64,000 nt of DNA from a virus (taxonomy: Duplodnaviria > Caudoviricetes), in IMG/VR virus record IMGVR_UViG_3300031853_000025, positions 1 through 64,000 of that record, one strand, 5' to 3'. The position numbers and the translations under genes were made by a program. Numbering within the stretch: the stretch's first letter is position 1; every line of letters starts with the position of its first letter. Below, piece after piece: positions 802 through 12,795 of the stretch. Under the pieces are notes generated by a model, which made no database searches, was not told the origin of the DNA, and worked only from the letters and a program-made list of their open reading frames with translations.

Positions 802-2031
802 TCAAGTATTGTCATTTTTATTTCCTTTAAATGGAAGATTATGGTTCAATACTGGATTATAGTCTAACTCGTTAAATCTTATGCTCTCAAATTGATTTAG
901 AGCTGCACTATCAAATTTATATCCTGTATCTAAAAATATTTCTTTAAATAGTTTCATTTCCATATGGCGTAATTCGCATTGATTTCGTAGTTTACTTTCT
1001 AAAGAACCTGCACAATGCTTACATGTTACCATACATTCAAAACAATGTAATGCGTGGCATGGTTTTCCTTTATACATCATACCACAGCTTGGAGGTTTAT
1101 TATAATCCGCTACGAAATTTTCCATTTTAGTTTTATCCAAGCCTTCATAGATATTACCAAAATTTGTATCTTCATCATGTACTTTAGAAATATCGTCTGA
1201 TAAAGAACACGGGAAAATTTCTCCCTGAGGATTAAAAAATAACGTAGCTCCTAGATGTCTACATGTTACCCATCTACGTCTACTTTGGAAATCCATCTTA
1301 ATATCATTATAGCACATATAAAGCATATTTTCAATATTAATTATATATTCTGCAATTTTATGCTCTCTAGCATATAAGAAAATTTTTCTAAGCTGTTCCT
1401 CAGTTTTTGAAATGAAATCATCTTCTTCAAAAACTTTCTCATCATTTATTACATAATATTCCCAGTGTTTGCAACCATTTTCAACTACGAATCTATAGTC
1501 ATCAAATAATTCATCTATAGTATCTCGTGTAGCAGCAGTTCTAATATTAATTCCTTCTCTATATTCGTTGCATAGTGTTCCTAAGTATTTTATATTTTTA
1601 TTAAAAAACTCATCATCATAAGCTTTATTTTTTACTAGTCTACTTCTTGATGCACTATGTAAACCATCCCATGAAAGATGAAAGAAATATGGTTCAATAT
1701 ATCCTTCATCCATAAGACCAATTAATTCTTTAAGTTTAGAACCATTGGTGAATACGTTATAGCAAAATTTGGTATCTTTATATCGTCTGACTTTATTAAT
1801 TTGCTTACATGCATTTCGTAATTCATCTACCGCTAAGCTAGGTTCTCCACCAGATAGCATAAATGAAACTCTTGGAGCTAACGGAAGTTTAATTAAAAAT
1901 TTATTTAACGCTTTATAATCAGTAAATTTTGTAGTTTCATTTTTTACATATTCATGCTGATAGCAATATTTACAATTTAGATTGCAAAAATTTGTCACAC
2001 GTAATCCAAGAACACTTATTTCATCATACAT
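802..2031 (-). CDS. Radical SAM/SPASM-domain enzyme C (409 aa)
   Basis: CNLNCKYC motif, SGGEP, C-terminal C...GEIFPC...CHALHCFECMVTC...C. Start reassigned to ATG 2031 behind SD GAGGAGG. Confidence 0.92.
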   Translation of the reverse strand: MYDEISVLGLRVTNFCNLNCKYCYQHEYVKNETTKFTDYKALNKFLIKLPLAPRVSFMLSGGEPSLAVDELRNACKQINKVRRYKDTKFCYNVFTNGSKLKELIGLMDEGYIEPYFFHLSWDGLHSASRSRLVKNKAYDDEFFNKNIKYLGTLCNEYREGINIRTAATRDTIDELFDDYRFVVENGCKHWEYYVINDEKVFEEDDFISKTEEQLRKIFLYAREHKIAEYIINIENMLYMCYNDIKMDFQSRRRWVTCRHLGATLFFNPQGEIFPCSLSDDISKVHDEDTNFGNIYEGLDKTKMENFVADYNKPPSCGMMYKGKPCHALHCFECMVTCKHCAGSLESKLRNQCELRHMEMKLFKEIFLDTGYKFDSAALNQFESIRFNELDYNPVLNHNLPFKGNKNDNT

Positions 2032-3334
2032 CGTCTTCCTCCTCTTTATCATCTTCTCCAGGTGTTGGAACTTCATTAACCGTCCCAAAAGGATAGACAT
2101 CAAATGTTTGAGTTTTAATTTCTCCATCTTTATACTCATTAACTTGTGCAGTTATAATACCATCAATAGAGAAATCTGGAGAGTTTTTAGTTTGTTGGTA
2201 ATCATTTTCATAATATGCCTTAAACAACTCTAAAGTTTCACTGTTATTATTAAACCAATCATCATAGTGTTTTAATGTTTTCTGAAATGATAATACGGAC
2301 GGTTCTTTGGAATTAAGTGTATTGATTATTTTTTCTTCATCACCAAGAACGAACTCTTTATCAATAATATTAATATTCGTCAATTTATCCGATGATTCTA
2401 GTAAATCAGTCATTTTTAATAAACGTCTTACACTAGCAGCATACATTTCAATCATGACTTTATCGTATACCATTAGCCCACTTAGCAATCTTCTCATATC
2501 TGATAAGCCGAGATTCGTATACTTAATAAGTAAATCAAGATATCTGCAAGCCGCATTGAAATCACGGCAAGCAAATGCCAATTCAAATTTAGTATTTAAA
2601 ATAGATACTTTAGCAATGCTGTAATCGCCATATTGAATATTGAATAAGTCTTCATCAATAGATGTAGAATTCAATGCAGTATATGCCGCATAATCAGAAG
2701 ACATTTCATCAGTCATTAATGTAATGCAATGAGCAAATACTTCAAGGTATTCATAATCAAGAATGTCTTTATCTACAATATCTTTATACTTAACTCTGCA
2801 AGAATCCAGATATTCTTTAATTGTGTTAAGATACTCTGGTGTAGATTTATCTTTAATCTTTCTACATAAAGTTTCTGTAGATGCAGTAATATATTTAAGA
2901 TGTACGTAAGAAGACATCTCTTTTAATTTATCCCATTCAATTGATTCATAATAATTTTTATAAATATTTTGGAATACTGGATACGTTCTATCATCATATG
3001 ACCAGTTGATAATATTAGACAAAATAAAGAGTCTAGTTTCTTCATCTTGTGTATAGTCATTATATAAAGCTAATAATTTCTCTTTATTATATGACACATC
3101 GGCACAAACTAATGTTTCAATCTGCATATTTTCTGGAATATATTTATCAATCATTAAATCTACTTCATCTAATATAAACCTAGTGTATTTAGTATTTAAT
3201 TTGTTTTCCCATGCTATAGCATCTACTAAAGAACTTACGCCAGTAAAAGACTCTCCGACTTTTTCAGTAATTAGTCTAAATTCATCTGAGTCTTTTACTA
3301 TTTTATATATTCTTTCTGGCAAATAATAAAGCAT
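2024..3334 (-). CDS. Alpha-helical partner protein 2 of the rSAM cluster (paralog of 5015-6196)
   Basis: 436 aa ORF, translationally coupled on both sides, alignable by eye with 5015-6196. Confidence 0.8.
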   Translation of the reverse strand: MLYYLPERIYKIVKDSDEFRLITEKVGESFTGVSSLVDAIAWENKLNTKYTRFILDEVDLMIDKYIPENMQIETLVCADVSYNKEKLLALYNDYTQDEETRLFILSNIINWSYDDRTYPVFQNIYKNYYESIEWDKLKEMSSYVHLKYITASTETLCRKIKDKSTPEYLNTIKEYLDSCRVKYKDIVDKDILDYEYLEVFAHCITLMTDEMSSDYAAYTALNSTSIDEDLFNIQYGDYSIAKVSILNTKFELAFACRDFNAACRYLDLLIKYTNLGLSDMRRLLSGLMVYDKVMIEMYAASVRRLLKMTDLLESSDKLTNINIIDKEFVLGDEEKIINTLNSKEPSVLSFQKTLKHYDDWFNNNSETLELFKAYYENDYQQTKNSPDFSIDGIITAQVNEYKDGEIKTQTFDVYPFGTVNEVPTPGEDDKEEEDDV

Positions 3335-4383
3335 TATTTCGCCCCCTTAGAGTTTATTGCAGTATATAAATTAACTTCAAAATTGTGATAGTCTTGAATG
3401 ATTTTATATAGTTTTTGGTATTCGCTAAATGTAAGCGAATCTAACCATTCAGTTATCGTTTCATAAATAATTTTAGCCATCTGACATGCAGCTTCCGTAT
3501 GCTTATACTTCCATTCATCTCCGAAGTATAAAACTCTTTCATACCGGCAGCCACCATCACATACACAGCTGTATTTACAATTCTTACAATCTTCTGATAA
3601 GCAAGGACGTTGTAGTTCTTCTTCACTAAAGTCTTTAACCTCTTGTGATAATGCGGTACAAAAACATTTTTTACCATATGGAGTAATTACTTCATATTTA
3701 CCAGCATCACAAGATGCATAATTTTTATCATTATTTAAAATAGCACTTATCCTATTTAAGTGCTCATAATATACATAATCTAAACTAAAAGTTTTTCTAT
3801 AATATTCTTTAAACTTCTTCAAATAATTTTCTGTATATACTTTTCTATGTGCAATAACAAACTCACCATGCACGTTAGGATACTTATTATGCAATTCGAC
3901 AAACGTTTTATGAATATCTGGGAAAATATCTATATTTTCATTTCCCACAACACATTTAATATCAAATACCAATCCTGTTTTAGCTGCATATAAAATATTA
4001 TCCCATACCGTTTTAGATATGGAATTACCAGAAACATCTACTCTATTCTTATCAGAAAATCCATCCCATGACAGTTGAATTTCATTGAGCGGATATTTCT
4101 TATTAAATTCTAAGAATTCTTTAAAATTAACAGATGTAGATGTAACTATTTGGAATTTAATTTTTCCATAATATTTCTTTACGGTTTCTTCTAATAAGTC
4201 TAATCGGACTAATGGCTCACCACCAAAGAAAATAATACGATCTGGTTTCTCTTCAGCAATGATTTTATCAATCTGCTCCATAGTCATAGATTTAGGATTT
4301 GCTCTACCCTTAATATAGCAATATTCACATCTATTAGGACACTGCTCTGTCAGCATTAAATATAGTTCTTTAAAACCAAACAT
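3334..4383 (-). CDS. Radical SAM/SPASM-domain enzyme B (about 349 aa)
   Basis: CPNRCEYC motif, FGGEP, C-terminal SCDAG...KCFC...CKNCKYSCVCDGGC...AC. ATG at 4383, alternative TTG at 4389. Confidence 0.92.
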   Translation of the reverse strand: MFGFKELYLMLTEQCPNRCEYCYIKGRANPKSMTMEQIDKIIAEEKPDRIIFFGGEPLVRLDLLEETVKKYYGKIKFQIVTSTSVNFKEFLEFNKKYPLNEIQLSWDGFSDKNRVDVSGNSISKTVWDNILYAAKTGLVFDIKCVVGNENIDIFPDIHKTFVELHNKYPNVHGEFVIAHRKVYTENYLKKFKEYYRKTFSLDYVYYEHLNRISAILNNDKNYASCDAGKYEVITPYGKKCFCTALSQEVKDFSEEELQRPCLSEDCKNCKYSCVCDGGCRYERVLYFGDEWKYKHTEAACQMAKIIYETITEWLDSLTFSEYQKLYKIIQDYHNFEVNLYTAINSKGAK

Positions 4384-4385
4384 AC

Positions 4386-4997
4386 TCAAATACCACAGTG
4401 CTGGTTATGACATGTGTTATGCTGACAGGATTGGCAAGCTAATTGGCAGGATTGCTGACAAGATACCTGACAACTACGAACGCACCAACCATTACCATCA
4501 AACCAACCCCAATATGTATTATTAAAATAATTAATCATAGTAATTGTATTTTGTCTGTAAATCTGCATCCAATCAGCTTTTAATTCTGGAGAAATGCGGA
4601 CATCTTGATATCTCCAAGTCTGACCAGCTGTAGAGAATGATGATCCGGCTTTAAATTCATCTTCAATATCATCAATAATACGTTTAAATGACGCATACTT
4701 AAATCCAGTTGTTTGAGCTTGACGTTCATTATCTAAAATGGTAACATCATTCCATGCAGTATTATAAGAATCAGCATCACCGACATCTTGTCTAAACCAT
4801 CTAAATGCCTGGTAACGGTTATTCCACATAGGTGGATTATCTTTAACGACATAAGCATCTCTATTTAAAGCCGACCATACGGTTTCAAAGGCTACGCTAA
4901 TTTGTCTTAATTTATTCCATAGTGTTCCATTAGCTAATTCTCCAACATTAATGCTGTCTGGGAAATTTAAATTTTTATTACCAATTCGTACTTGCAT
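4386..4997 (-). CDS. 203 aa protein with a C-terminal C-x3-C repeat (8 Cys); putative rSAM substrate 2
   Basis: Ends WFDGNGWCVRSCQVSCQQSCQLACQSCQHNTCHNQHCGI. Confidence 0.8.
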   Translation of the reverse strand: MQVRIGNKNLNFPDSINVGELANGTLWNKLRQISVAFETVWSALNRDAYVVKDNPPMWNNRYQAFRWFRQDVGDADSYNTAWNDVTILDNERQAQTTGFKYASFKRIIDDIEDEFKAGSSFSTAGQTWRYQDVRISPELKADWMQIYRQNTITMINYFNNTYWGWFDGNGWCVRSCQVSCQQSCQLACQSCQHNTCHNQHCGI

Positions 4998-5014
4998 TTT
5001 GTATAATCACCTCA

Positions 5015-6196
5015 TTATTCTAGAGTACTAATGTAGTCATTAATAACTCTTTTAGCATCTTCTATTACAGCTGTATTAGAAGACAATTCAACTAGCTCAT
5101 CTTCATGAGCTATTAACCATCGTTCAATATACTTATTATACTTGCTTAAAGTCAATTTGTCAAATGTGTAATTAAATCTAGATTTAGAAATAAAATTATC
5201 GCTATTTAAAAAGATTTCATCTGATAATTTTAGATTTACTAGTTTAAAATTTAGCTTATTTTGAAATACATTTTTCAAATGATTCAATCTAATTATGCTC
5301 GTAGCAAAAGAATAAATATTAAATTTATTATAATATCTTAATCCATTAAATAGCTGCGTTAAATCAGCCAATGCGTTATCTGTATATCTAAAAATCTTAT
5401 ATAGCATTAAGAAGAAATTATTATAGTCTTTATTATTTAAATACACTTCAGCGATTTCTTCAAATAGCCAAATAACTCCCATAGAATAGTATTTATTGTC
5501 AAAATCTAGTTTTTCTACATCTGTATCTATTGTAGTAATAATTTCTTGCATATCATCTGTAGATAATTTATTCTCTAATAGACACAAATAACTAGCTTGG
5601 ATTTCTAAGAAGTCATTATTTATTGTATCTGTGCTAACGATATAGGGTTGCAAATCAGTCTTTAATTTTTTATAGTCATCCATAAATGTATTATAATCTG
5701 CAATGCTAAACGTATGAGTCTTATTCTTTAGATAAGAATAATATAGATTATATGCATAGATTTCATAGTAAGTCACATGAATGTATTTAGGCAAGTCCGA
5801 TTTATTTTTATAATTTTCATAAATATAGCAAAACATGCTAATGTATTTATAATAGATTCCATCGTTCATACCATATGTAAGAATCTTATCAAGAATTAGA
5901 AGCTGTTCTTTTTCATTTGTTATTCCCTGAAGCATACTTGTAAGTGTTTCAAGAGAAATATCAGTCGTAGAATAATAAATAATCTTATACAAATCAAGAT
6001 TTGTTTCTTTAATCTTTTCAGTCATTTTATCAAAGTATGTTCTTACGTCTTCACGATTACGTAAATCATAGAAAATCTTTAATTCCAATTCTATTGAATC
6101 AGCGTAATAGTTATCTGATATAGTACGATAGATTTCTTGGAACTCTGGATCATCTTTCAAGTATTCATATAATTCATCAATCAAGTATAATTTCAA
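5015..6196 (-). CDS. Alpha-helical partner protein 1 of the rSAM cluster
   Basis: 393 aa ORF with an SD, colinear similarity to 2024-3334. Confidence 0.8.
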   Translation of the reverse strand: MKLYLIDELYEYLKDDPEFQEIYRTISDNYYADSIELELKIFYDLRNREDVRTYFDKMTEKIKETNLDLYKIIYYSTTDISLETLTSMLQGITNEKEQLLILDKILTYGMNDGIYYKYISMFCYIYENYKNKSDLPKYIHVTYYEIYAYNLYYSYLKNKTHTFSIADYNTFMDDYKKLKTDLQPYIVSTDTINNDFLEIQASYLCLLENKLSTDDMQEIITTIDTDVEKLDFDNKYYSMGVIWLFEEIAEVYLNNKDYNNFFLMLYKIFRYTDNALADLTQLFNGLRYYNKFNIYSFATSIIRLNHLKNVFQNKLNFKLVNLKLSDEIFLNSDNFISKSRFNYTFDKLTLSKYNKYIERWLIAHEDELVELSSNTAVIEDAKRVINDYISTLE

Positions 6197-7762
6197 TTAT
6201 ACCCACCCCCCACTATTTTGATTGTGAGCTGTGTAATACTGACAATCTTGACATGCTACCTGACAAGAACTTTGGCAAGAAACCTGACAGCTTCTTGCAC
6301 ATAAATCATTTTCATCCCAGAAATTATTCTTATTATTAAATACAGTATTGATAGCTTTTAGATTTGAAATAATATTATTAAAAAGAGATTTGCCTATAGT
6401 ATCTCCAGCAGCTAGTAGTCTAAACTGGTTAAATGAATCAATTTCATTATAATCACCATAATAGACTCCTACTGCACCATGATTAGCTTTTAATTCATAT
6501 TCAGTACCATTTTCATCTAATGTAATTTTCCCACCATCACCAACTTTAACTTCAAATTGTTGACCTGGGAAACAATCAATAATCTTAGTCACAACCTTAC
6601 CATCATCAGCAACACTTGTTCCGTATGTATTATTAATAAATCCACGGCCAACTGTGCCAAATTCATTAAAGAAAGATAAATTATGACCACTTGAAGTAAT
6701 CTCTTTTAAGATTACTTCATCTTTATCATTTTTATATTTACCGCCTTCAGCTACTACAGTGTCAAAACTGCTTTGTTCACCGTTGGCTCCATCAGGAAAA
6801 TCTTTCGTTGATTTATAACGGGTCTTATCAATATATATAGCTCCACCACCAACAACAAATACAGAAATCTTTTTAATACCACCCGGTACTGTAAAAGTGT
6901 ATGTTCCTGGCTGGGTATATACCTTATCAAACCCATATTTAGATTTATCTCCACCCTTGACATATGCGATATATACAAAACCGCCAGATGGAATTTTATT
7001 AATGTCTGTATATTTAGCTGGATTAGCTGCTTTACCAACTTTAACTGAATACCCAGTGTTTTCATTTACATTTAAGATTGCATGGATAAATTCTCCATGC
7101 TCTCCACTATTATACTCTACGTCATTATACTGAAGTGTATTTGTCTTTAACCAAGAAATACTACGTTCTGGTCTACCATAATACCCTTCAATCATTTCAT
7201 ATAAACTAAGGCTATACCCTGAGGTAAATGCTAATGCATTTTTCGTGTATTTGCCTACACCACCTGCGGCAATAACCCCTTCAAAAAATGATTCAGAACC
7301 ATCAAACTTTTCAGCTAGTCCACCACCGGCCCCACATACACCAAGAATTACACTTTTGCAACCTTTAGGGGTTACAAAAGTATAGTTTCCTGGCTGTGTA
7401 TATGCTTTAAATTCAAGATTACCAATGGTTTCATCATAACCATATAAATCAGATAATGCTTTATTCATATTAGAAATAATATAGTTAAAATCTTTAGCTA
7501 GTAATGGGTTATTAATAATAGCAGACGACTTATAACGGTCGTCTTCGCTTGTTCTTTCATATGGGTAATAACGATTTACTTTATTATCTGGATTACCATA
7601 TCCAGAAATGACTTGTTTAAATCCTTTAGCCTCTCCTAGATTTTGATTAATAGCATTTACCAATGCATCTAAGAAAGACTTCTTTACCGGAGTCACATTA
7701 TCTGTGATTTCATCCGGAATTGTATATGAGACATGTTTGCCTCGTTTAACGTTTATCGGCAT
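6197..7762 (-). CDS. 521 aa tail-fibre-like protein with two Gly-rich domains and a C-terminal C-x3-C repeat (6 Cys); putative rSAM substrate 1
   Basis: Two YTQPG(N/T)YTF(V/T)(T/V)P.G...GGG domains. Ends FWDENDLCARSCQVSCQSSCQVACQDCQYYTAHNQNSGGWV. Confidence 0.8.
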   Translation of the reverse strand: MPINVKRGKHVSYTIPDEITDNVTPVKKSFLDALVNAINQNLGEAKGFKQVISGYGNPDNKVNRYYPYERTSEDDRYKSSAIINNPLLAKDFNYIISNMNKALSDLYGYDETIGNLEFKAYTQPGNYTFVTPKGCKSVILGVCGAGGGLAEKFDGSESFFEGVIAAGGVGKYTKNALAFTSGYSLSLYEMIEGYYGRPERSISWLKTNTLQYNDVEYNSGEHGEFIHAILNVNENTGYSVKVGKAANPAKYTDINKIPSGGFVYIAYVKGGDKSKYGFDKVYTQPGTYTFTVPGGIKKISVFVVGGGAIYIDKTRYKSTKDFPDGANGEQSSFDTVVAEGGKYKNDKDEVILKEITSSGHNLSFFNEFGTVGRGFINNTYGTSVADDGKVVTKIIDCFPGQQFEVKVGDGGKITLDENGTEYELKANHGAVGVYYGDYNEIDSFNQFRLLAAGDTIGKSLFNNIISNLKAINTVFNNKNNFWDENDLCARSCQVSCQSSCQVACQDCQYYTAHNQNSGGWV

Positions 7763-9140
7763 CAGACTCGTTCCCTTCGTCTGTGAATTTAATCTTAGAA
7801 CCGATAGCAGCTGCCATAATAGCTAAAATCTTACTAAGATCTTCACTAAAATAATCTTTAAATGAAGGCAAGAGATTCCCATTCACTTCAACATTTTTTA
7901 CTAATTCGCTAAAGTGATTTAGCTTAAACATGAAATCTCTATCAAGCGGCCCAGATTCTTTCAATACATTATCGAAGTAATCTTTAATCTTAAGATTTTC
8001 AATTAGTACATTGATTTCTCTAGACCTAATATTTGTAGCTTTAAGAAGCTTTTCTCTAAACTTTTGAATTTCTTCATAATACATAATTTCCAACTTGCAA
8101 TATGCATCAGTTGGTTTAAAGAATGTATTATTAGCATAGAAATTCTGGTAAGGACAACCAGACTTACAGCTGTATTTAGCTGGGCAATCTTTACATTCTG
8201 GTTTATCAAAAGTAGCTTTCATTGATTCTTTACGAATTTTATCTACATCTACACCAGTAAAGAAGTTTCCAATCTTTAATTTCTTTAGTGCTTCATTGTC
8301 TGTAGTTGGGAAATCTGGGCATGGCCATACATCACCATTCCAATCGACGACTACCCAACGTGTACTAGCAATATTACACATTTTATCATAATCACCGTTA
8401 GGAGATAATACATTGGTTAATGCATCGTCTACTTTACGGATACTAATATTTCGCTTATTATTTTCATCATTTAGAATATCAATATACATATTTAATGTAT
8501 CACTATAAGCTTTACGTAATTCTTCTACCGCTTCGTCTGACCATTCTAAATCAGATGCGGCTACAGGGCAAATATTATTAATGCCCATATCAATAAACAT
8601 CTTTACACTATCAGCCATATACTTAGCTGTTTCAGGTGTAACAGTCATACGGACTTCAATCAAATGAGAAAGTCCACGATCAATAACCTTATGAATATTT
8701 TCCATAACGACATCAAAAGATCCACAACGATGAGCGTTGTGGGCTTCTTTATTTCCGTCAACTGACGTTAAAAGAAAAATATCATTATCATCAATATAGT
8801 CAAGCATTTCATCAGTCATCATTGTCATATTGGTCGTAATACCAATAGCAAAATCTAAATGCTCTTTATTCTTAAAATCACAAATATGTTTAATTACAGG
8901 CCAAGCTAACATTGGTTCTCCACCAAAGAGATTGACTGTAAATTTATTCTCACCATAAACTTCTTTTGGAAGCTTACGATACGTTCTACGAATAATTTCT
9001 TCAGCTGTTTCTTTAAGAATGTAGTCTTTACCCTTGTTGGTTTCAAAACAATAATCACACCTGAGATTGCAATTATTGGTAAGCAAGATAGTAACAGAAT
9101 CTACAGCTGTATATACGTCTTTAAATTGTTTAATATTCAT
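7746..9140 (-). CDS. Radical SAM/SPASM-domain enzyme A (464 aa)
   Basis: CNLRCDYC, FGGEP, SPASM C...GDVWPC...CKDCPAKYSCKSGCP...YC. Start at ATG 9140 behind SD AAAGGAG. Confidence 0.93.
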   Translation of the reverse strand: MNIKQFKDVYTAVDSVTILLTNNCNLRCDYCFETNKGKDYILKETAEEIIRRTYRKLPKEVYGENKFTVNLFGGEPMLAWPVIKHICDFKNKEHLDFAIGITTNMTMMTDEMLDYIDDNDIFLLTSVDGNKEAHNAHRCGSFDVVMENIHKVIDRGLSHLIEVRMTVTPETAKYMADSVKMFIDMGINNICPVAASDLEWSDEAVEELRKAYSDTLNMYIDILNDENNKRNISIRKVDDALTNVLSPNGDYDKMCNIASTRWVVVDWNGDVWPCPDFPTTDNEALKKLKIGNFFTGVDVDKIRKESMKATFDKPECKDCPAKYSCKSGCPYQNFYANNTFFKPTDAYCKLEIMYYEEIQKFREKLLKATNIRSREINVLIENLKIKDYFDNVLKESGPLDRDFMFKLNHFSELVKNVEVNGNLLPSFKDYFSEDLSKILAIMAAAIGSKIKFTDEGNESDADKR

Positions 9141-9163
9141 TTTTAACGCTCCTTTGAAAAATT

Positions 9164-9775
9164 TTATCGTAGGGCAGCACCAGTATATTGCCAAGCATTA
9201 TTAACCCAAAATTTTACATAAAGCGCATTGGTATCAAACCAAATTTCTTTCTTTTCTTTTGGACTGCTTGGGGCAGATGGCCCAATAGTAATACGAATTC
9301 CACCAACTGTAACAGAATCACCTGCTCTAGTTGCATAATCCGCATTATTAGCGTGAGTTGCATTTGTAGCATTATCAGCATTAACTGCATGGTTAGAATT
9401 GTTTGCTGTATCTGAATATGCAATTGCTGATGGTAGATCTTTAAGATCATTATAAGAACCTGAGAAAGCAACTTTTTTCAGTGTAGCTTTCCAGTTATTA
9501 AAATCTGATGTTAGTAAGCGTTGAGCGATAAGATCCATGATAGTCTTACCAGCATCTTCGTAGTTACCAACGATCGCTTTAAATCGTTTATCAGTGTAAG
9601 TATTTGATTTCTGCTCTACAGAGTTCCAATAAGTACGTTCTGCGGCAGTAATGTGAATATTATTATTAGAAATATGCTTATTAAAATCATCATTATTTAC
9701 TTTCCGATTTAACATGTCTTGTAGACTTGGTGCTAATTCAGCATAAGTAACTTTGTTTTCTTTATTAAAAGCCAT
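9164..9775 (-). CDS. Short tail-fibre-like virion protein, first gene of the rSAM operon
   Basis: Shares the N-terminal ELAPSL...HISNNNIHITAAERTYWN motif with neighbouring fibre genes. Also has NA(D/T)xA repeats and a GPSAPS..EIWFDT tip. Confidence 0.7.
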   Translation of the reverse strand: MAFNKENKVTYAELAPSLQDMLNRKVNNDDFNKHISNNNIHITAAERTYWNSVEQKSNTYTDKRFKAIVGNYEDAGKTIMDLIAQRLLTSDFNNWKATLKKVAFSGSYNDLKDLPSAIAYSDTANNSNHAVNADNATNATHANNADYATRAGDSVTVGGIRITIGPSAPSSPKEKKEIWFDTNALYVKFWVNNAWQYTGAALR

Positions 9776-9809
9776 AACTTTTTAACCTCCTATTAGATAT
9801 AAATGGATT

Positions 9810-9821
9810 TATATGATTGTT
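9810..9821 (-). promoter_or_regulatory. Late-type promoter AACA-N6-TA driving the fibre/rSAM operon
   Basis: AACA atcata TA upstream of SD AGGAGG of 9775. Confidence 0.65.
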
Positions 9822-9889
9822 CTTGGGGTTAAAAAGATCTTAGCGAACTTATAATTAAATTAATTGTTTATATTGAGGTGATAAATAAT

Positions 9890-11116
9890 ATGAAACGCAT
9901 GGGTAAATTAATTACAAATAAAACCGATGTAGATTATATTCTTAGCATTGATGAAAAGATCGGTACTAAGAAATCTACTATTATGGAATTATTCGGAGAA
10001 TTTAATGGTAAAAGAAGATTTAATACATATGATATGATTGATGTTCCCCCTGGAGCATATGGCCCCGAAGGTAGAAAAAATAAAAACAAATTTAGAACGA
10101 CTATTGGTATCTGGATTTTCAATAGAGTATTTATCGAAAGAGAATTATTCGATATGTATCACTATGTAAATAAAACCATTACCAAGAAAGTATTTAATAA
10201 GATTGCTAAAGAGATTACTTTTAAAGTGCTTGAAAATAAGTATCCTCTGGATGCATTGAAACACTATATGCTTAAATGCCAGAAGTTTATGCCTTACGTA
10301 ACTATTCTATCTGAAACGACTACAATGAAATTATTAACTATTACTCAAAAAGTCGAAGTCGAAAAAGCTAAACTCTTAAAGAAATATGAAAAAGAAGTTA
10401 AAGCTAAAGACCCATATGTAATTATTAAAATTCAAAATGAATTACTTAAAATGGCCGAGGACGAATTAAAAGATGATCCATCTATGGATATTTATCGTTC
10501 TGGTGCTAAAGAAAAACTTAACAACGACTTCAAGAATATGTATATCATGAAAGGTCTTACTAAAAACCCTGACCCAACTAAGGGTTACAACTTAATTACC
10601 TCTAGCTATATGACTGGTATTAAAAAAGAAGAATATGCTGATTTTGCTAACTCACTAGCCGAAGGCCCTTACGCTCGTGGTATTAAAACTGGTTTAGGTG
10701 GTTACTGGGAAAAATTAGCTTTACCAGCATATCAGCATATTAAAATGCTTCCTAAGGGAAGTGATTGCCATACAAAAAGACATATTAAAATTAAGCTAAC
10801 TAATGATAATTATGATAAATACATTTATAGCTTTGCTAAAGTTGGTTCTAAGTATGTAGAATTGACTAGTGAAAATAAATCAGATTTTATTGGCAAGGAA
10901 GTGCAATTACGTTTTTCTTCTCTATGTGAAGCAAAAGACGGTATTTGTAATATGTGCGGCGGTAATGCTTTTTATCGTCTTAGTATTACAAATATTGGTG
11001 CAGCCATTCCACAGGTTCCTGCAAAACTTAAATTAATTTCAATGAAAGCTTTCCATGATTCTCAGGTCGTAATGGAAACCATGGATCCAATGAAAGCTTT
11101 TGGATTTGATGATTAA
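9890..11116 (+). CDS. Phage multisubunit RNA polymerase beta' subunit, C-terminal part (408 aa)
   Basis: SGAKEK..MKGLTKNPD, bridge helix ARGIKTGLGGY, GSDCHT, Zn site LRFSSLCEAKDGICNMCGG and trigger loop ISMKAFHD align with bacterial RpoC. The GTG at 9878 is part of the SD GAGGTG. Confidence 0.9.
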   Translation: MKRMGKLITNKTDVDYILSIDEKIGTKKSTIMELFGEFNGKRRFNTYDMIDVPPGAYGPEGRKNKNKFRTTIGIWIFNRVFIERELFDMYHYVNKTITKKVFNKIAKEITFKVLENKYPLDALKHYMLKCQKFMPYVTILSETTTMKLLTITQKVEVEKAKLLKKYEKEVKAKDPYVIIKIQNELLKMAEDELKDDPSMDIYRSGAKEKLNNDFKNMYIMKGLTKNPDPTKGYNLITSSYMTGIKKEEYADFANSLAEGPYARGIKTGLGGYWEKLALPAYQHIKMLPKGSDCHTKRHIKIKLTNDNYDKYIYSFAKVGSKYVELTSENKSDFIGKEVQLRFSSLCEAKDGICNMCGGNAFYRLSITNIGAAIPQVPAKLKLISMKAFHDSQVVMETMDPMKAFGFDD

Positions 11117-11130
11117 AGGAGGTATTTATC

Positions 11131-12795
11131 TTGGGAGAAATCCATAAAAATTATCAAGTGCCAGATAAAATATCTTCTGATAAAGATGGTAATATTGAAG
11201 TTGGACGAATTATAACATGGAGGGATCCCGGTGATCCAGGTAATTTAGTTCCATCAAATCCTAGACATCCAGATGATAAAAAATATCCTAATGACCAACA
11301 TAATCGAGGTCATTCAACAGGAGATATGACATCAGATAATACAGATGAAAAATATACAAATAACTATGGTGAATCTGGTGTTGTATTAGGTGATAAGATT
11401 AATCATAATGCTGAAAAGTATAGACCGATTAATTTCGATAATTTAGTTCCAATTAAAATTACTACCACACAACAACAAAAAATGTTTAAGAATCTTTGTA
11501 TTCCATCAGCTATGCACGCATATTCTGTTGGGGTAGAATTCTTTAAACAATGGATATTAAATAAATTTGATCCAAAGTATTTTAAAACTGTCTATGTAGA
11601 TGGTAAACACCTATTCGATGATTTTTCTAAAATCAATGAATTAGATTTAGTCAAGAAAGGTAAACCAGCTATTGGATTCTTTCCTAATATTGATATTGAT
11701 TACAACCGTGAAGGCATTGAAGCACAAACATATGACTTAATGTATTACGCTAGAACGTTTGACAATAGAGATGCTTTCTTTAAAGATAATGAAAATAAAC
11801 TATATATCTCTATTGCCTTAGAGCAATATTTAATGAATTTCAATATTAAGATTAAAGTAGATACGAGAGCTAAGCAATTAGACTTAGCTAAGTATCTTAG
11901 AATTGCCCTTAAAGTTGGTGCGACAAGTGGGTATTATCTTGATTTAGATTTACATGTACCATATGAAATGCTATTTGCCTTAGCTGAGCAAGCTGGCTTT
12001 GAAGTAGACTATGAAACTGGTCAAGTTAAAGATCCATTTAAATTCTTATTATATTTGAATAGTAAATCAGACGTACCATTTGTATATAAATTACGCTCGA
12101 TCAATGGGATGAATGAATTCTTCTTACGAGCGCCAAATCTATATACACATATCAATGTACAAGATATGAGTATCGACGATGGTGAAAGACAAAATCAAGT
12201 TTCATCAAACTATTTTATTGAATTGAATGCTAAACTATTAATGCCTGCTCCTAAGATGTATTGCCTGTTTACTACAAAGAGAAACGATATTATTTCTATG
12301 ATAGATAAATCAGGGAATATCAAATCTTATGTGGCTAACTTTACAAATGTACCGACTTTGAACAATCGTGGATGGGAACAGTTTGTAACTCTAGATTACC
12401 AAGAGGAAGATAGAACTCGTCCATTAGTTATTGATTTAAATGAAATCTTCCAAGGTGAAAATAATATATATAGTCTTATCGAGTATAATAAATACAATAT
12501 GATTAGTCCATCTACATTTATTGATTTCAAATTATTCAATAATAATAAAGAATGGGACTATGATTTAGACTGGGATAATATGATTATTAAAACTAAGAAA
12601 CCAGTAGATTTTCAGCTAACTGAGATTGTAATATACATTGATAAAAATTATGTAAATACACAAACGATTACTATGAGCAATGATAGTAATTATAGAGTCA
12701 CGTATAACAAGACAGCTGGTAATAATACTAATGAATCTTTCCGTAGCCAAGAAAAAATGAAACGACTCCGTTTAGGCTTATTTCACAAAAAATAA
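11131..12795 (+). CDS. Hypothetical 554 aa protein, probably structural
   Basis: TTG start behind SD AAGGAGG, long clean ORF, no recognised motif. Confidence 0.6.
   Translation: MGEIHKNYQVPDKISSDKDGNIEVGRIITWRDPGDPGNLVPSNPRHPDDKKYPNDQHNRGHSTGDMTSDNTDEKYTNNYGESGVVLGDKINHNAEKYRPINFDNLVPIKITTTQQQKMFKNLCIPSAMHAYSVGVEFFKQWILNKFDPKYFKTVYVDGKHLFDDFSKINELDLVKKGKPAIGFFPNIDIDYNREGIEAQTYDLMYYARTFDNRDAFFKDNENKLYISIALEQYLMNFNIKIKVDTRAKQLDLAKYLRIALKVGATSGYYLDLDLHVPYEMLFALAEQAGFEVDYETGQVKDPFKFLLYLNSKSDVPFVYKLRSINGMNEFFLRAPNLYTHINVQDMSIDDGERQNQVSSNYFIELNAKLLMPAPKMYCLFTTKRNDIISMIDKSGNIKSYVANFTNVPTLNNRGWEQFVTLDYQEEDRTRPLVIDLNEIFQGENNIYSLIEYNKYNMISPSTFIDFKLFNNNKEWDYDLDWDNMIIKTKKPVDFQLTEIVIYIDKNYVNTQTITMSNDSNYRVTYNKTAGNNTNESFRSQEKMKRLRLGLFHKK

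Follow-up and report, generated by a model that had tools for sequence, protein, structure and literature searches.

An uncultured phage operon of three radical SAM/SPASM enzymes and cysteine-tailed proteins suggests cross-linking of fibre-like proteins

What do three radical S-adenosylmethionine (radical SAM, rSAM) enzymes of the SPASM type do in a single phage operon, in the company of a fibre-like gene and two proteins with cysteine-rich ends? The operon lies on the minus strand at positions 802-9821 of the stretch analysed here (the window, 64 kb), which is the first part of a 73-kb IMG/VR virus record (IMGVR_UViG_3300031853_000025) with a completeness estimate of 30%. Its eight genes run in the order F (fibre-like), rSAM A, T1 (target), P1 (partner), T2, rSAM B, P2, rSAM C, with junctions that overlap or leave gaps of at most 17 nt, so that the tightly coupled operon described in a first-pass annotation from the letters alone stands, apart from corrected starts for A and C. 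This composition suggests that the phage cross-links its own fibre-like proteins. The explanation we favour, and hold to be rather probable, is a phage-restricted cassette in which A, B and C, with one or two helper proteins, cross-link through thioethers the C-terminal Cys tail of late virion fibre or adhesin proteins.

A conserved cysteine tail on modular proteins

T1 and T2 have only their last 45 or so residues in common, and these are 60% identical. The C-x3-C array that the first-pass annotation saw at both C-termini is therefore a shared one, with eight Cys in T2 and six in T1. Homologues of T2 with overall identities as low as 60% keep the tail unchanged residue for residue. At the DNA level, the T2 tail differs from that in locus L003 by 15 synonymous and three non-synonymous codon changes, and from that in L006 by 11 synonymous and no non-synonymous ones. 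This synonymous excess indicates strong purifying selection on the tail.

To describe the tail family, we used a profile of the 50-residue tail in an exhaustive profile hidden Markov model (HMM) search and clustered the hits at 50% identity. The profile matched 89 clusters, of which a few low-scoring ones with internal or repeated matches look spurious. In the remaining clusters, the proteins are 70 to 630 aa long and end with the tail. The pattern C-x3-C-x3-C-x3-C-x3-C-x2-C plus 10-14 residues was present in 74 of the 77 representatives, and the invariant positions of their alignment are five Cys, one His and one Gln; nearly every Cys is followed by Gln. The consensus reads roughly W-(W/F)-D-x-N-x-x-C-x-R-S-C-Q-V-S-C-Q-x-x-C-Q-x-x-C-Q-x-C-x4-C-H-N-Q-x-C-G, with a conserved aromatic-x-Asp/Asn stretch ahead of the Cys array. 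In a few members the CQxx array runs on to 15 or more units. On IMG/VR, a scan with a back-translated (CQxx)x4 DNA pattern mostly recovered 12-bp tandem DNA repeats and was rejected for counting the family.

Many family members share a modular build, consisting of a common N-terminal hairpin and helix, a variable middle and then the tail. T1 passes the Pfam cut-off for Gly_rich_2 (26.4 versus 24.3 bits), has PHROG minor-tail matches, and is 36% identical over its full length to a 572-aa protein of a 260-kb jumbo phage (L011). In some relatives the variable middle holds CBM_5_12 or F5/8 type C domains, as well as PHROG tail matches. An AlphaFold2 (AF2) model of T2 (predicted local distance difference test score, pLDDT, 73) shows a helical bundle. 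In BFVD, structure searches with the models returned family members only, and a protein atlas gave no named cluster.

Two further kinds of protein carry related arrays. At L011:12911-15254 (+), two paralogous proteins of 400 and 374 aa have a shortened five-Cys CQ array in an internal position (about aa 236-259), followed by a further domain of 120-140 aa that ends in CxxC, so that a C-terminal position of the array is not universal. Large proteins of 337 aa to over 1300 aa from IMG/VR loci L016, L053, L083, L093 and L177 contain long internal C-(Q/E)-x-x runs and may be stalk-like versions of the same repeat. A role of the Cys tail as a ferredoxin-like electron carrier was considered and rejected, as neither the variable binding domains nor the i, i+4 spacing suits it.

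Two-way co-occurrence of the enzymes and the tail

We next determined how closely the tail and the enzymes are linked. Searches for related loci with the single sequences of T2 or P1 found nothing, and alignments were needed as queries. Orthogroups A, B, C and P were defined by all-against-all BLAST of the sequenced loci, and HMMs were built from them. The lineages compared were the 260-kb jumbo phage L011, contigs of 33-45 kb (the L009 type) and a T4-like contig; these three divergent lineages hold the same cassette parts. Orthogroup A joins rSAM A to r450 of L011 and r451 of L009, B joins rSAM B to r346 and to r388 with its paralogue, C joins rSAM C to r392 and r422, and P joins P1 and P2 to u391 and u416 of L011 and u377 of L009. 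Identities to the window proteins are 65% (L011) and 32% (L009) for rSAM B, 38% and 31% for rSAM C, and 32% for P1 in L011.

In IMG/VR, the tail used alone as query retrieved 26 loci, of which 25 have A directly upstream of the tail gene. B and C lay downstream on the same strand in 24 of those 25 A-bearing loci, and P in most. Retrieval in the reverse direction, by A alone, gave 22 true A orthologues, each directly followed by a canonical tail gene. The finding that the first-pass annotation had named as damaging to its proposal, namely these enzymes in other phages without Cys-tailed genes, was thus not made among these loci. Loci with a single target still hold A, B and C. Because the three enzymes are separate orthogroups that stay together even with one target, they are better explained as one three-enzyme pathway than as enzyme-target pairs, and we read the arrangement as a probable three-step pathway acting on one shared tail motif.

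The cassette looks restricted to phages, since a search of one genome each of 185,579 prokaryote species gave three matches only, all on metagenome-assembled contigs. Beyond the cassette itself, more distant phage rSAM/SPASM genes (at most 29% identity to A) adjoin proteins with other Cys-repeat tails, including CNCNY-type heptads, CD-x2-CD repeats, TCDCN-type repeats and CSGSC-type repeats (loci L165, L170, L173, L174, L176, L179-L186, L188, L189, L191-L193, L195, L196, L199-L202 and L209). These neighbours suggest that phage enzyme-and-tail pairs form a wider family.

The enzymes, their partners and the likely chemistry

All three enzymes belong to the radical SAM superfamily (Pfam PF04055; A 63.4, B 66.6 and C 34.7 bits, cut-off 29.5). 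Counted from the likely starts, their CxxxCxxC motifs begin at residues 24 (A), 17 (B) and 16 (C), and the motif is retained in 85 of 85 homologues of A, B and C that were scanned. SPASM character was judged by a seven-Cys set, made up of Cx9-15Gx4C, then Cx2Cx5Cx3C and then a final C. The first element is present in all three enzymes and the second in A and B, while C has a variant Cys cluster at that place. Where the first-pass annotation had seen CxxxCxxC and SPASM-type Cys sets in all three, A and B have the complete set and C has it in part. In Pfam, A alone passes the SPASM model (26.2 versus 21.5 bits), and B has no match to it.

The best NCBIfam family for A, B and C alike is the PapB ranthipeptide maturase (NF047865; 200.1, 59.1 and 82.2 bits), followed by other peptide maturases. 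The closest solved structure to rSAM A is CteB, the SCIFF maturase (PDB 5wgg, E-value of 4.5e-22). These results agree with the maturase-type identity proposed at first pass and support the assignment of the three gene products as peptide- or protein-maturase-type rSAM/SPASM proteins. Two observations concern distant or degenerate enzymes. Phage Phass-1 (L008, OQ749652.1), from a clade in which TAG is a sense codon (code 15), has a distant rSAM homologue whose gene is annotated as split. In L011, an additional rSAM-like cassette gene (7378-8700, +; 440 aa) lacks both the CxxxCxxC and the SPASM motifs, and its product may be a pseudo-enzyme or a scaffold.

Known maturases of this kind give a yardstick for what the cassette might do. 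In the SCIFF/CteB system (TIGR03973 and TIGR03974; PDB 5wgg and 5why), a peptide of about 45 residues is modified by a single maturase that bears an RRE (recognition element of RiPPs, ribosomally synthesised peptides with post-translational modifications). The window tail weakly resembles the Cys-rich SCIFF core, with SCQ-type C-x3-C spacing, and one public record of a tail-family member has been automatically named 'Six-cysteine peptide SCIFF'. These likenesses are sub-threshold: the T1 tail scores 16.8 and 15.1 bits with the precursor models TIGR03973 and PF13165 (cut-offs 50 and 27) and the T2 tail has no match to them, while with TIGR03974 (cut-off 425) A scores 115.5 bits over model positions 82-438 only and C scores 31.6. 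Unlike SCIFF, the tail here sits on proteins of 170-630 aa and is accompanied by three enzymes that have no room for an RRE (PqqD-like) domain, as they begin 16-24 residues before CxxxCxxC. Consistently, the alignment of rSAM A starts at CteB residue 93, past the RRE domain of CteB. The CXXX-repeat systems (TIGR04114, TIGR04115 and TIGR04117) likewise pair Cys-x-x-x repeat targets with a SPASM maturase, and the longest CQxx arrays of the phage family recall them. Still, A and C reach 98 and 42.4 bits with the maturase model TIGR04115 (cut-off 350), and the tails 10.3 bits with the repeat model TIGR04114 (cut-off 20). The SCIFF and CXXX-repeat comparisons that the first-pass annotation had put forward as checks thus all remained below their cut-offs. 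We found no paper on the chemistry of CXXX-repeat systems in the searched literature.

The freyrasin system of PapB shares with the cassette a repeated Cys motif of four-residue spacing that is cross-linked several times per substrate. It differs in that its substrate is a peptide and that PapA has C-x3-D with Asp as the acceptor, where the window tail has another Cys four places on and a conserved Gln neighbour; the cut-off of the family is 340 bits. Closer in substrate size is CrpC, a SPASM rSAM enzyme of Methanococcus voltae that was experimentally shown to form ranthionine cross-links on the full-size 28.8 kDa protein CrpA (Dieter et al. 2026, PMC13692751). In CrpA the repetitive Cys region is C-terminal and an N-terminal segment is conserved, and a paralogue, CrpB, resembles a helper (PMC13692751). 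Conversely, CrpC bears an RRE and works alone, the repeat unit of CrpA has 17 residues, the host is an archaeon with no viral context, and rSAM A scores only 66.6 bits with the CrpC-type model TIGR04463 (cut-off 525). In the quinohemoprotein amine dehydrogenase system, the rSAM/SPASM enzyme QhpD forms Cys-Asp and Cys-Glu thioethers within the subunit QhpC, which, as far as it is cited in PMC13692751, remains in a larger assembly. Its family (TIGR03906) is among the top matches of A (114 bits, cut-off 453), and it differs from the phage cassette in having one RRE-bearing enzyme and, as substrate, a small enzyme subunit instead of a modular phage protein.

Thioether chemistry is thus established in peptides (SCIFF, freyrasin) and in proteins (QhpC, and CrpA since September 2026; PMC13692751). 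The statement of the first-pass annotation that no characterised example is known therefore holds for phages in the literature searched, which contains no description of the phage cassette, and does not hold for full-size proteins, given CrpC/CrpA and, from its citation there, QhpD/QhpC. A 2017 survey reported up to 12 radical SAM genes in the genomes of T4-like marine phages and gave no substrate (PMC5332604). The viral setting, the fixed set of three RRE-less enzymes, the helper resembling tetratricopeptide repeat (TPR) proteins and the tail module on fibre-like proteins are absent from the literature that we found.

For the window tail, we consider thioether formation the most likely chemistry, because the families and the solved structure that come nearest form thioethers, because the Cys are the invariant residues, and because the invariant C-H-N-Q agrees with a motif of CrpA and CrpB, C-X-X-Q/D, which has been called suggestive of radical-SAM thioether formation (PMC13692751). 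The motifs actually mapped as cross-linked in CrpA are others than C-X-X-Q/D (PMC13692751). It is also conceivable, if unlikely, that the tail is modified in another way, by C-C or C-O cross-links to the Trp/Asp/Asn stretch, by epimerisation or by conversion of Cys, or that the array serves mainly to bear metal or disulfides, with the enzymes only assisting its maturation. Every family score lies far below its cut-off, many SPASM families of other chemistries match too (anSME, cyclophane formers, DarE/DynA), the aromatic-x-Asp/Asn stretch is conserved, three different enzymes suggest more than one type of reaction, and the authors of CrpA suggest that it may bind metals (PMC13692751). Such modifications would fit less well with a best family and a best solved structure that both form thioethers, and with invariant residues that are Cys. 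As for a metal-bearing module, the strict i, i+4 spacing of the Cys corresponds to no iron-sulphur or zinc-binding motif known to us.

How the enzymes might find their substrate without an RRE may depend on the partner proteins. P1 and P2 are paralogous, as had been proposed (23% identity, E-value of 7e-14), and neither has a Pfam, NCBIfam or PHROG match, nor was an RRE found in them by the Pfam and NCBIfam searches. The P2 type occurs in nearly every cassette and has a conserved start, M-x-x-Y-L-P-E-R-I-Y. Its AF2 model (pLDDT 84, predicted template modelling score 0.82) is an all-alpha solenoid with a short C-terminal hairpin, for which Foldseek gave no PDB match at an E-value of 0.001 or below. 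The best structural neighbours of the model are TPR peptide receptors of the Rap/PlcR/NprR kind (phage phi105 Rap, Z 9.4; PlcR, Z 9.3), at values that any helical repeat commonly reaches (Z below about 13). A complex prediction of T2 with P2 scored 0.01 against a mark of 0.32. It is a reasonable inference that P may be a recognition or scaffolding subunit that stands in for the RRE.

The partner fold and the likeness of the tail to a SCIFF core could also be taken to mean that T1 and T2 are giant RiPP precursors, from which the modified tail is cut off and released as a ranthipeptide-like bacteriocin or signal, for which the TPR-like partner would be receptor or chaperone; after all, the nearest folds of P2 are RRNPP peptide receptors and include a phage Rap. 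We regard this as highly improbable. Precursors of 170-630 aa with binding domains would make a poor leader, the fold match lies within the helical-repeat background, and the partner matches no family in the three databases, those of DNA-binding proteins included. As the first-pass annotation had noted for the operon, no protease, exporter or immunity gene was found in it or in any cassette examined; the open reading frame (ORF) list, Pfam and NCBIfam also gave no hidden small ORF within the operon.

Returning to thioether cross-linking, we propose that three distinct RRE-less rSAM/SPASM enzymes and one or two TPR-like helpers would act on the C-terminal tail module and install several Cys-derived thioether (ranthionine-type) cross-links, by which the tail would become a rigid, covalently stapled knot or ladder. 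Candidate acceptors may, speculatively, be sought in the repeated Q-x-x-C spacing and in the D and N that are conserved upstream of the array. The targets would most likely be late-expressed fibre or adhesin parts of the virion.

Operon layout, site of action and meaning for phages

The positions of the operon features are collected in Table 1. In the ORF list, rSAM A extended over 7746-9194 and rSAM C over 802-2139. The start of A is most likely the ATG at 9140, which stands behind an AAAGGAG site and is also called in relatives, and that of C most likely lies at 2031, where a ribosome-binding site and the gene calls of relatives agree. F is tentatively called fibre-like, the sole basis being weak PHROG tail matches (E-value of about 3e-4). 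Its counterpart by position in L011 is 48% identical, and an HMM of F built here finds matches upstream of A in jumbo-phage lineages.

Table 1. Operon features and their coordinates in the window
Feature	Coordinates	Strand	Basis or remark
AACA-N6-TA promoter-like motif, AACAATCATATA	9810..9821	-	34 nt upstream of first-gene ATG
F, 203-aa fibre-like protein, first operon gene	9164..9775	-	weak PHROG tail-protein matches
rSAM A, radical SAM/SPASM enzyme, 464 aa	7746..9140	-	Pfam Radical_SAM, Fer4_12 and SPASM all pass
T1, 521-aa putative target, two Gly-rich fibre-type domains and C-terminal Cys array	6197..7762	-	Gly_rich_2; PHROG minor-tail matches
T1 conserved tail module, aa 479-521; Cys array aa 488-507	6200..6328	-	
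P1, 393-aa all-alpha partner, jumbo-lineage paralogue type	5015..6196	-	paralogue of P2
T2, 203-aa helical putative target, eight-Cys tail	4386..4997	-	homologues, AF2 model
T2 Cys array, aa 172-201: C-x3-C four times, then C-x2-C-x4-C-x4-C	4395..4484	-	
rSAM B, radical SAM enzyme, full SPASM-type Cys set, about 349 aa	3334..4389	-	Pfam Radical_SAM, Fer4_12
P2, 436-aa partner, universal 'LPERIY' type, alpha-solenoid	2024..3334	-	AF2 model
rSAM C, radical SAM enzyme, variant auxiliary Cys set, 409 aa	802..2031	-	Pfam Radical_SAM, Fer4_12

The first-pass annotation had placed a late AACA-N6-TA promoter ahead of the operon, and the motif is indeed present there. Across the window it is 2.6-fold depleted (30 copies versus 78 +/- 10 expected), and 10 of the 30 copies sit 10-49 nt upstream of ORF starts, compared to 2-4% for random positions. 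With its overall depletion and a third of its copies near ORF starts, the motif behaves like a promoter element. We take it to be of the kind that precedes late genes in AR9-type phages, and by that analogy the copy before the operon may be a late promoter. One copy is internal to rSAM A (8620-8631).

On the other side of this motif, the neighbouring gene at 9878-11116 (+) encodes a 412-aa protein that matches residues of about 660-910 of bacterial RNA polymerase beta' (E-value of 4e-5) and is a piece of the split multisubunit polymerase typical of jumbo phages. Close relatives of the window phage are carried on 215-kb contigs. Together, these indicate a jumbo phage with its own multisubunit polymerase. 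The next gene (11131-12795) had no PDB sequence match.

Where would the modified proteins act? We favour a role in virion fibres or adhesins because the targets are modular and contain Gly_rich_2, CBM_5_12, F5/8 type C and PHROG tail features, because the operon opens with a fibre-like gene and, in a 215-kb relative, has Gp10_C baseplate-type genes beyond it, and because the array varies in length in some members, which would suit a structural part. If the modification is real, the targets could instead be non-virion proteins with a function inside the host cell or at its surface during infection, for instance in adhesion, exclusion or takeover. In the T4-like contig and the L009 type, the cassette sits among nucleotide-metabolism, glycosyltransferase and superinfection-immunity genes, and the T2 model has no recognisable fibre fold. 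Set against the fibre-type and carbohydrate-binding domains in the variable middles, the fibre-like first gene, the baseplate-type neighbours and the putative late promoter, we find this distinctly unlikely.

Several results nevertheless weigh against stapling of virion proteins by thioethers. None of the A, B and C scores reaches the cut-off of PapB or of any other named maturase family in NCBIfam, and the tails fall below the cut-off of every precursor family tested. T1 lacks the last two Cys of the tail, and the thioether reading does not account for a need for three enzymes. The T2 model had no PDB match at an E-value of 0.001 or below (Foldseek) and no likeness to known fibres, and in some lineages the cassette lies among DNA-metabolism and other non-tail genes. 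Lastly, among 50,697 GenBank phage records, tblastn with T2, P0141 and P0077 gave no match to the tail, megablast with the whole operon gave no match, and rSAM A matched at no more than 27% identity. There is therefore no isolate at hand.

Considering both sides, we favour thioether cross-linking of late fibre or adhesin proteins. A broader reading, which we find plausible though short of probable, joins all parts: many uncultured phages, from genomes of about 40 kb to jumbo phages of 280 kb, would staple the Cys ladders of their fibres or adhesins by a dedicated three-enzyme thioether pathway in which a TPR-like helper replaces the RRE, and the cassette would be one subtype of a wider phage theme that matches different Cys-repeat tails with different SPASM enzymes.

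If true, this would be the first case of virus structural proteins being cross-linked post-translationally by radical enzymes, and a strategy of covalent hardening comparable in spirit to the chainmail of the HK97 capsid. RiPP-type radical chemistry would then take part in virion assembly, and phage structural biology would gain a new class of covalent modification. The tail motif together with A, B, C and P would provide a sequence rule for predicting modified phage proteins, and the cassette would offer a natural case of one folded protein substrate shared by three RRE-less SPASM enzymes, useful for studies of substrate recognition and for the engineering of stapled proteins. The finding would also be relevant to the way in which phages of gut and rumen stabilise their host-binding apparatus.

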